A stretch of 63,692 nt of DNA, counting the filler, from Rhabdomonas costata (Eukaryota), in assembly GCA_019059605.1 (NCBI GenBank). It is 28 parts of 28 records of this genome, joined end to end, with 100 filler letters (N's around TTAATTAATTAA, not from the genome) between each part and the next. Parts side by side here need not be neighbours in the genome. Positions count along the whole stretch, not along the records: positions 50,137 to 52,312 come from JAHMHO010005056.1; 27 more parts are not named here. One strand, 5' to 3'. Position numbers and translations under genes: made by a program. The notes under the pieces are model-generated. The model was not told where the DNA came from and made no database searches. It saw only the letters and a list, made by a program, of their open reading frames with translations. Below, in pieces: positions 50,137-51,402 of this stretch (position 1 is the stretch's first letter; every line of letters begins with the position of its first letter).

Positions 50137-51342
50137 CAACTTCTGAAGATCATCCAAGTTGTTTGTGGGAACTGAACGAGACTTCAGCAGCTTGGCAGCT
50201 TTGGACAGGCTCCCCTCCGAAACCGCAGTAATGACCGCACGGTTGGTCGCCGGGTCAAGCAAATCACCAAGAGGTTGTGGAGGCGTCTTGGACTTCGGCT
50301 TCCGCGTCCCACCACCACATGCCTGAATCGCCTGGGGGCCAACTCCCGAAAAGCGCCCGCACTCCATCGTTGAAGCCGGTCAAGAATGACTCCATTTGCT
50401 TGACGGTTGTGCTTACGCCCTCCCCGGATAAGAGGGAAAAGCACCAGCCTCGGTAGGAGAGCGACAAACCACGCAGACTGGGCATCCCGCTTTTCATGCA
50501 GGCGTCGCAGCGCTTCGGCAAGCGCGTCGGCCAGGGGCTTCCGGCACGCTGGAGGTATGTGATGGATTGTGCCTGCCGGAAGGGCGAGGAGTATATCTGT
50601 TTGCGAAATTACATCCGGTGGAACGAGAAGCTGCTCTGAGAGGGGAGGGCTGTCCGGGTGCGGAGGGACACTGTTGTGCAGAACTCCAGCTTGGGGACGA
50701 CGGCAGTGGTCGCGAGGGCCACGCTTCTGGCACCCCCTGCACGACTTGTTGAGGGGCATGAACAGGCCGCAGCACAGCCATCGCGAGTAAGCAGACAAGA
50801 AGGACTCAGGGATCACCACATCACCGTCTGAACTGGAGAGGTGGATGGTCTCAATGTGGTTAAGCAAGGCCTGACTGCTCGCGTATGACGACTTGCATGC
50901 TCGGATCGGGCAGCAGTGTCGCAGCCCTGCGGTACCCTGTCGGGGGACACTCTGCTGGACAGTGACTGGCGCAGGCGCAGGTGGCGAGTCATTCAACACC
51001 CCAGCAGATTGATCAGCGTCACCGAAGAGCAGGGCTTGCTCAGCCATTGCAGCCGTTACCTGGCTGGAGCCATAGGGATCATGTGCGAAGGGGCTGGGAC
51101 GTGCACTCGAGGAAGACCCACTGTGCTCCCCGACAACCAAGCCAGAAAGACTCGGCTCATGGACACCTTGAAGCAGCTGCCCTGTCCCAGGATTCCACCC
51201 AGGGAGTGCCTTGCCGTCGGGTGGGCCTGCAAACGCGTTGCGCTCCATCGTGGTCAAAGAGGGAGCAAAGAAGGACGAGGGAGCCGAGAGGTGCGGTGGG
51301 GGCAACTTTGGCTTGCGTTGGCGGGGGGATGCCAACCCCCCC
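50137..51342 (-). mobile_element. CRE-clade (CRE/SLACS/CZAR/MoTeR-like) non-LTR retrotransposon, 5' part
   Basis: Intronless ORF (first ATG near 51248). It has a C2H2 finger CPIRAC...LLNHIETIH, a second Cys cluster, then TIHHIP..CR..LA..L...LLPRLVL...RGG...RLQRW..G. After a frameshift near 50320 it continues RAVITAVSEGSLSKAAKLL, the pre-RT region typical of CRE elements. The contig ends before the RT. Confidence 0.8.
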
Positions 51343-51376
51343 TAAAACAGCAAAAAGAATCAGCACCTCGACAAGT

Positions 51377-51402
51377 CGAAAAAATGATTACACTCAGTAA
51401 TG
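51377..51402 (-). other. Euglenid spliced-leader exon-like sequence
   Basis: Minus strand CATTACTGAGTGTAATCATTTTTTCG has 18/26 ungapped identity to the Euglena gracilis SL as recalled (ACTTTCTGAGTGTCTATTTTTTTTCG). It is not followed by GT, so it is not an intact SL RNA gene. Confidence 0.65.

Follow-up and report, generated by a model that had tools for sequence, protein, structure and literature searches.

Several described systems bear on the locus reported here, which is a retrotransposon copy headed by a spliced-leader (SL) exon of euglenid type, on the minus strand of a 63,692-base stretch of DNA (the window). R2 inserts in the 28S ribosomal DNA, and a ribozyme frees its 5' end from the co-transcript. 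NeSL-1 of Caenorhabditis is an endonuclease-bearing element of the type that lacks long terminal repeats (non-LTR), which inserts into SL1 genes; its host phylum differs from the euglenids. The CRE elements of trypanosomatids split the SL exon at one set point inside it, within SL RNA gene arrays. In dinoflagellates, retrogenes are marked by DNA-encoded SL relics, as described in passages of PMC12014239, PMC6050394 and PMC5585692; these relics are explained, in the passages from the first two of these sources, by reverse transcription of trans-spliced mRNA. We lean towards reading the window copy as a retroposed, SL trans-spliced element RNA, akin to the dinoflagellate SL-relic retrogenes.

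The copy is a 5'-complete, 3'-cut and frame-shifted R2-like retrotransposon of a Rhabdomonas-type euglenid. It sits in a contig of 2176 base pairs (bp), 50137-52312, whose end at 50137 falls inside the open reading frame (ORF) of the element. Since the contig stops there, the 3' junction, the tail and any target-site duplication lie outside the view. The features of this contig are given below; lengths are in nucleotides (nt), and coordinates count along the window.

51377..51402, minus strand: SL exon copy, 26 of 27 nt, with the first base changed from A to T at 51403; identified by SL match, unique in the window.
51249..51376, minus strand: leader of 128 nt between the SL copy and the ATG, beginning with ACTTG (no GT).
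50340..51248, minus strand: first frame of the retrotransposon ORF, N-terminal region, with the start codon at 51248; identified by tblastn with the relatives P0001 and P0002.
50841..50912, minus strand: C2H2-type zinc finger, C113-x4-C-x12-H131-x4-H136; residues 113-136 of the window ORF.
50137..50358, minus strand: ORF continued in a second frame (…AVITAVSEGSLSKAAKLL…) and running off the contig end; residues 334-406 of P0001 align here.
51403..51623, no strand: upstream flank of the SL copy, 221 nt, unlike the upstream flank of SL RNA genes.
51624..52312, plus strand: divergent open frame of 236 codons, first ATG at 51624; the stop-to-stop scan is open over 51606-52313.

The locus shares with the dinoflagellate SL-relic (DinoSL/DinoRL) retrogenes, as these are outlined in PMC12014239 and PMC6050394, an SL of the organism itself that is encoded in the DNA before the coding region and lacks the SL intron. 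However, the window locus belongs to a euglenid, and it is the RNA of an autonomous retrotransposon, not of a cellular gene, that carries the tag. The SL is also near-complete (26 of 27 nt), whereas the dinoflagellate relics are cut at an internal AG, and no tandem relics were seen. The CRE clade (CRE1, CRE2, SLACS and CZAR) resembles the window element in its occurrence in Euglenozoa, in having one ORF that encodes one or two zinc fingers, a reverse transcriptase (RT) and a restriction-like endonuclease, and in being physically tied to SL sequence, according to PMC12278014. Nevertheless, a fixed internal insertion in the SL exon of the CRE type was not found at the window element, which has the exon before it in full (26 of 27 nt); its flank does not look like that of an SL gene, and its neighbour is a protein-coding ORF. 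The R2 proteins (Bombyx mori, Taeniopygia guttata and Platysternon) are the best profile and fold matches over the RT, the thumb/linker, the CCHC motif and the endonuclease, whereas the identity to them is only 13-17% and the 5' end of the window element is the host SL. SL relics in dinoflagellate retrocopies are thus already known; the euglenid host, the autonomous R2-like tagged RNA and the near-complete SL are new. No report of SL-tagged retrotransposons or retrogenes from euglenids came up in searches of the open-access literature.

The motif that heads the element is CATTACTGAGTGTAATCATTTTTTCG, 26 nt on the minus strand at 51402-51377, which the first-pass annotation had taken for a euglenid SL exon. 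This assignment is borne out by the comparison with known SL sequences. The SL published for Rhabdomonas costata has 27 nt, as quoted in PMC8219788, a source found through a full-text match to the last 17 nt of the motif. Compared with the 26 nt at the end of this SL, the window motif agrees at 25 of 26 positions, and the sole mismatch is G-to-A at motif position 9. When either base was permitted at position 9, six exact matches were found in five public metagenome contigs, all six of which carry the A of the window motif; the published G may thus reflect strain variation, or it may be an error. Four of the six matches (L001, L002 and two in L003, all from lake metagenomes) are genuine SL RNA genes, whose exons are identical to the motif at 26/26 positions. 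In these genes an A precedes the 26-mer, and after the exon come GTATAA, two hairpins, an Sm-type site AATTTTTGA and a terminal hairpin. The fold z-score of the true SL RNA of L001 is -3.42. In L003 the two SL RNA gene copies point away from each other across a palindromic spacer.

Judged by sequence identity, the motif is a genuine SL exon of a Rhabdomonas-type euglenid and no look-alike, because it matches the true SL RNA genes at 26/26 positions and the published SL at 25/26. No second copy of the motif exists in the window at three or fewer mismatches, and a match was obtained in none of 100 shuffles; its 10-nt and 17-nt tails have no further occurrence in the window either. Searches of the genome-contig and viral-contig collections with the SL pattern gave 0 matches each, and strings of the SL intron had no match in the open-access full texts.

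The SL motif is followed by ACTTG and not by GT, and the gap between the motif and the ATG is exactly 128 nt, close to the 130 nt or so estimated at first. The ATG at 51248 opens a frame of 354 codons. The leader was tried as an SL intron and rejected: it has no GT splice donor, it does not resemble the L001 SL intron (p 0.86), and its fold is shuffle-like, with a z-score of -0.47 against -3.42 for L001. No SL intron was found anywhere in contig 50137-52312. A search of the window and of L001-L005 with Rfam gave no family above threshold and one chance-level match in the window. By eye, a TGTTTTAG motif and then a G7/C6 hairpin can be seen 29 nt past the SL. The stretch 51342-51362 of the leader (minus strand) has 13 pyrimidines in 15 positions, followed by AG at leader positions 34-35, and resembles a trans-splice acceptor. 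This pyrimidine tract and AG might allow the SL-headed copy to be spliced again.

The ORF behind the leader had been described as a zinc-finger/CRE-type frame. Relatives, alignments and R2 matches identify it as the N-terminus of a non-LTR retrotransposon protein that combines a zinc finger and an RT with a CCHC motif and a restriction-like endonuclease. The relatives P0001 and P0002 (1157-1158 amino acids) are 59-62% identical to the window ORF over 335-358 amino acids in tblastn. The N-terminus MERNAF..GPP..ALPGWNPG is common to the window ORF, P0001 and P0003, and the ATG is the conserved start of the family. Relative to the intact relatives, the window copy has a frame shift near 50340-50358; the RT and endonuclease regions are absent from it, and the contig ends before the RT. 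No Pfam family matched the 354 residues of the window ORF, and no Pfam model for its zinc finger reached the threshold. Three of the four ligands of the N-terminal finger (C113, H131 and H136) do not vary among the 16 sequences aligned in A4. This alignment also shows conservation of a further cysteine cluster (C159, C170 and C173).

The C-terminal domains are seen in the relatives. Full-length members, of about 1158 amino acids, carry a C2H2 finger at the N-terminus and, besides the RT, a CCHC motif and a restriction-like endonuclease of the PD-(D/E)xK type. RVT_1 of Pfam was found in three of the four closest relatives of the window ORF. The residues C976, C979, H989 and C993 of the C-terminal CCHC motif (C-x2-C-x9-H-x3-C) are invariant in 14/14 full-length members (alignment A2); in this 14-sequence alignment D1049 is also invariant, and R1001 and D1035 are nearly so. 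Search of the PDB with the A2 profile placed R2 proteins best (5.8e-28 and 1.7e-27, against 1.8e-18 for the LINE-1 ORF2p), whereas a single-sequence search of the PDB gave no match. The C-terminus of A2 aligned weakly to the CCHC/endonuclease region of R2 (5.6 bits). An AlphaFold model of P0001 has a predicted local distance difference test (pLDDT) score of 79 and a predicted template modelling (pTM) score of 0.73; R2 proteins occupy ranks 1-7 of the Foldseek search with this model, with 888-1175 columns aligned and an identity of 13-17%. The apurinic-type endonuclease family Exo_endo_phos was not found by Pfam in P0001, P0002, P0004 or the ORF of the SL-headed locus L004. From these sequence and model comparisons the element is classed as an R2-like non-LTR retrotransposon bearing a restriction-like endonuclease. 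The class rests on the R2 proteins as best profile and fold matches, on the conserved CCHC/endonuclease columns, and on the lack of an apurinic-type endonuclease.

The N-terminal region by itself has 122 database relatives at E <= 0.001; no relative of the protein was confirmed in the viral-contig and genome-contig collections. Among the relatives returned by the protein homology searches, no sequence is named CRE, SLACS, CZAR, NeSL, R4 or Hero, and a cluster look-up and an Atlas search yielded no CRE, SLACS or CZAR name either. Apart from unnamed relatives, the tree of the RT family contains one protein from Diplonema; its two outgroups have an endonuclease of the apurinic type. The Diplonema protein (P0187, DIPPA_10562 of Diplonema papillatum, 1861 amino acids) is a relative of the family, with an E-value of 4e-129 to the family profile, and the Diplonema genome is reported, in PMC10161547, to have SLACS-like RT gene models. 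Because of this relative and these reported models, the element superfamily is considered, from sequence relationships, to span euglenids and diplonemids and to be old in Euglenozoa.

The same 26 nt head two other loci in independent data sets. The first (L004, SESG01018254.1, 4380 bp) has the SL at 7-32, a leader of 196 nt and an ORF of 1237 amino acids with RVT_1. This ORF is 26-27% identical to P0001 and P0002 and forms a separate deep branch in the tree, and the SL is the sole non-coding sequence common to the window and L004. The 26-mer is preceded in the contig by 6 nt, and the 27-nt SL by 5 nt, so that the contig begins 32 nt before the exon end. Behind the stop codon, 438 nt end in a short TTA repeat, and there is no terminal A run inside the contig, a poly-A tail at the 3' end being a trait of the CRE clade. 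A repeat common to the 5' and 3' untranslated parts of L004 was considered and found to be at chance level, and so was a resemblance of the window leader to the 3' part of L004.

The second locus (L005, Ga0073936_10135155, 1898 bp) has an intron-less SL inside the contig, 31 nt before ORF-A (203 amino acids), and shows no relation to the RT family. Its first and last 32 nt agree at 31/32 positions. On account of this agreement in sequence, L005 is taken to be either circular or a single 1866-bp repeat from a tandem array, with one intron-less SL copy per unit. Both of its ORFs lack a Pfam family above the cut-off, and their Atlas scores (0.80-0.82) are at chance level. A 401-codon open stretch of L005 stops at a TGA within the SL copy, and there is no poly(A) before the SL. 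The SL ends at the last base of the exon in the window, L004 and L005 alike. From the SL to the ATG there are 128 nt in the window; the corresponding stretch measures 196 nt in L004 and 31 nt in L005. These distances are typical of mRNA leaders. The first SL base is A in the four SL RNA gene copies and in L004, whereas the window has T at this place and L005 has G. A ragged 5' end of this sort would be expected of retrocopies and not of a resident SL gene.

The upstream flanks were compared with one copy per element, and with SL genes that come from other, environmental samples and have an identical exon. Local alignment of the window flank with the SL-gene flank of L001 scored 24; when 542 real segments of 200 nt were taken from the window, about 10% of them did at least as well. 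Flank scores among the window, L005 and the SL gene were 21-25, at the 10% and 7% levels of this real-segment null, whereas the two SL-gene flanks scored 318 against each other. A hint of collinear similarity between the flanks of the window and L001 was rejected; real segments put it at the 10% level, and stricter gap costs moved it to 69%. On the other side of the window flank, the divergent open frame starts 221 nt upstream of the SL copy.

These observations can be accommodated in a proposed series of events. A source copy of the element would have been transcribed, and its transcript would have been given the SL (26/27 nt) by trans-splicing, as are most euglenid mRNAs, at an acceptor just before ...ACTTG. 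The element's own RT would then have copied the mature RNA to its extreme 5' end in target-primed reverse transcription. The new copy would start with the SL exon because the RT reached the 5' end of the RNA, and the exon would be joined at its last base to the 128-nt leader. Finally, the copy would have been inserted at an unrelated site, 221 nt from the divergent host ORF. We infer that the SL arrived in this way, by trans-splicing followed by retroposition; this origin is favoured because of the exact junction at the exon end, the mRNA-like leader lengths, the chance-level flank scores and the ragged 5' base. The presence of the same 26 nt at the head of both a distant RT element (L004) and an unrelated repeat unit (L005) also speaks for it, as does the SL and leader preceding the conserved ATG of the family.

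Several points weigh against a retroposed origin. A retrocopy ending in ...CG is without the AG acceptor from which it arose, which leaves its renewed expression to be accounted for. A single copy is visible in the window, and it is cut at its 3' side by the contig end. For the window the flank test carries little weight, since its reference SL genes were taken from other samples. Site specificity is frequent among elements with this type of endonuclease, and their relatives in kinetoplastids target SL RNA genes, as stated in passages of PMC12278014. Behind the SL of L004 stands a GT; an AATTTTG resembling an Sm site and a GC hairpin can be made out by eye after it, and these features would suit an SL RNA gene more than a spliced leader. 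This look is without statistical support: the alignment to the L001 intron has p 0.21 and the fold z-score is -1.08. The leader of L004 was also tried as a shortened SL RNA intron, which remained at chance level. Finally, the join between the SL and the flank could be chimeric if the window comes from the whole-genome-amplified draft assembly of R. costata; we regard such a chimera as highly improbable.

The first-pass annotation had left two alternatives side by side, retroposition of a trans-spliced RNA and targeting of SL sequence. The former is favoured by the SL at the 5' end together with the seemingly unrelated flanks; the latter has fared less well and is now rather unlikely. It supposes that the endonuclease of the element makes its cut where exon and intron meet, in SL RNA genes or in orphan SL copies, as a euglenid counterpart of CRE, SLACS and CZAR. 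The SL exon and its promoter would then stand upstream of every copy and would drive an SL-headed element RNA, an arrangement that we consider equally doubtful. Such insertion would yield the same 5' junction, and it has precedent in the kinetoplastid CRE clade, which inserts in SL RNA genes according to PMC12278014. It is also consistent with the best PDB matches, which are site-specific R2 proteins, and with the SL exon before the ORF, in the same orientation, in two very distant lineages (the window and L004). The GT right after the SL in L004 points in this direction as well, and so does the age of the superfamily suggested by the Diplonema relative P0187 (E 4e-129) and by the SLACS-like models mentioned in PMC10161547.

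However, the window flank is unlike the SL-gene flanks, with a divergent ORF 221 nt away, and no SL intron was found in contig 50137-52312. Both the window and L005 are without the first base of the SL, and L005 has the same junction at the exon end without an RT gene. The cut point would also be other than the internal SL position used by the CRE clade. If boundary insertion were nevertheless true, SL-gene targeting would extend from kinetoplastids to euglenids.

A broader form of this idea, which seems unlikely, is that the euglenid R2-like elements are SL-gene specialists, integrating at the exon/intron boundary or homing to DNA-encoded SL copies. It would be similarly unlikely that they exploit the SL RNA promoter and exon to obtain a ready-made SL-headed mRNA. 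If this were true, the association with SL RNA genes would be ancestral in Euglenozoa and would predate the kinetoplastid CRE clade, and the lineages would differ in the cut site within the same small gene.

Template switching from element RNA onto a small RNA has been seen in U6-LINE chimeras. A corresponding join of SL RNA, or of an SL RNA gene, to the element could have arisen here through an RT template switch, or through a degenerate SL gene just upstream; it is very unlikely. The GT, the AATTTTG and the GC hairpin seen by eye after the SL in L004 would fit such a join, as would the TGTTTTAG and the G7/C6 hairpin 29 nt after the window SL. However, the window has no GT, the leaders cannot be aligned to the L001 intron (p 0.86 for the window and 0.21 for L004), and their folds are no better than shuffles (z-scores -0.47 and -1.08, against -3.42). 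Organisms with identical exons would be expected to have alignable introns.

A chimera of assembly or whole-genome amplification, fusing SL-headed DNA or cDNA to unrelated DNA at 51402/51403, is highly improbable. In its favour, the published R. costata draft genome is very fragmented and was made from whole-genome-amplified DNA, as reported in passages of PMC8219788, and the window is built of contigs of about 2.2 kb, but L004 and L005, from independent data sets, show the same intron-less SL inside or heading DNA contigs, and a chimera would still require a DNA molecule beginning with the SL.

The window as a whole is made up of 28 contigs, each about 2.18 kb long and arranged from longest to shortest, with 27 artificial linkers (N44-TTAATTAATTAA-N44) between them. 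Its GC content of 52% and its fragmentation are in keeping with the R. costata draft genome, which PMC8219788 describes as very fragmented, with 51% GC. Features spanning these linkers are artefacts. The linker next to the element contig is the following.

50037..50136, no strand: artificial linker (N44-TTAATTAATTAA-N44), contig boundary.

The other 27 contigs of the window have no match to the element in tblastn with P0001 and P0002. The divergent frame at 51624-52312 is likely an exon of a host gene; a search with Pfam gave only a sub-threshold match to EcKL (E 0.02, 14.7 bits against a cut-off of 22). The Pfam scan of the window covered 77 of the 80 listed open frames of at least 140 codons, the omitted three being all in contig 50137-52312, and 74 of these 77 frames had no Pfam family at E <= 1e-4. 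Matches on other contigs are an adenylate/guanylate cyclase at 19920-20447 (minus strand, 6.6e-10), an ABC_membrane_2 at 52715-53278 (plus strand, 1.1e-7) and a cold-shock domain at 56966-57778 (minus strand, 5.9e-13).

If the SL came by trans-splicing, the window copy would be direct genomic evidence that the RNAs of euglenid retrotransposons are SL trans-spliced, and that full-length trans-spliced RNAs are reverse transcribed into the euglenid genome. A DNA-encoded SL could then also be used in euglenids, as it is in dinoflagellates, as a tag for the detection of retrocopies and for the dating of retroposition. The finding bears on how non-LTR elements without a promoter gain a capped, translatable 5' end in organisms that depend on trans-splicing. 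It also suggests a possible origin of the SL-gene specificity of the kinetoplastid CRE clade, since an element RNA that bears the SL could pair with SL genes at integration.

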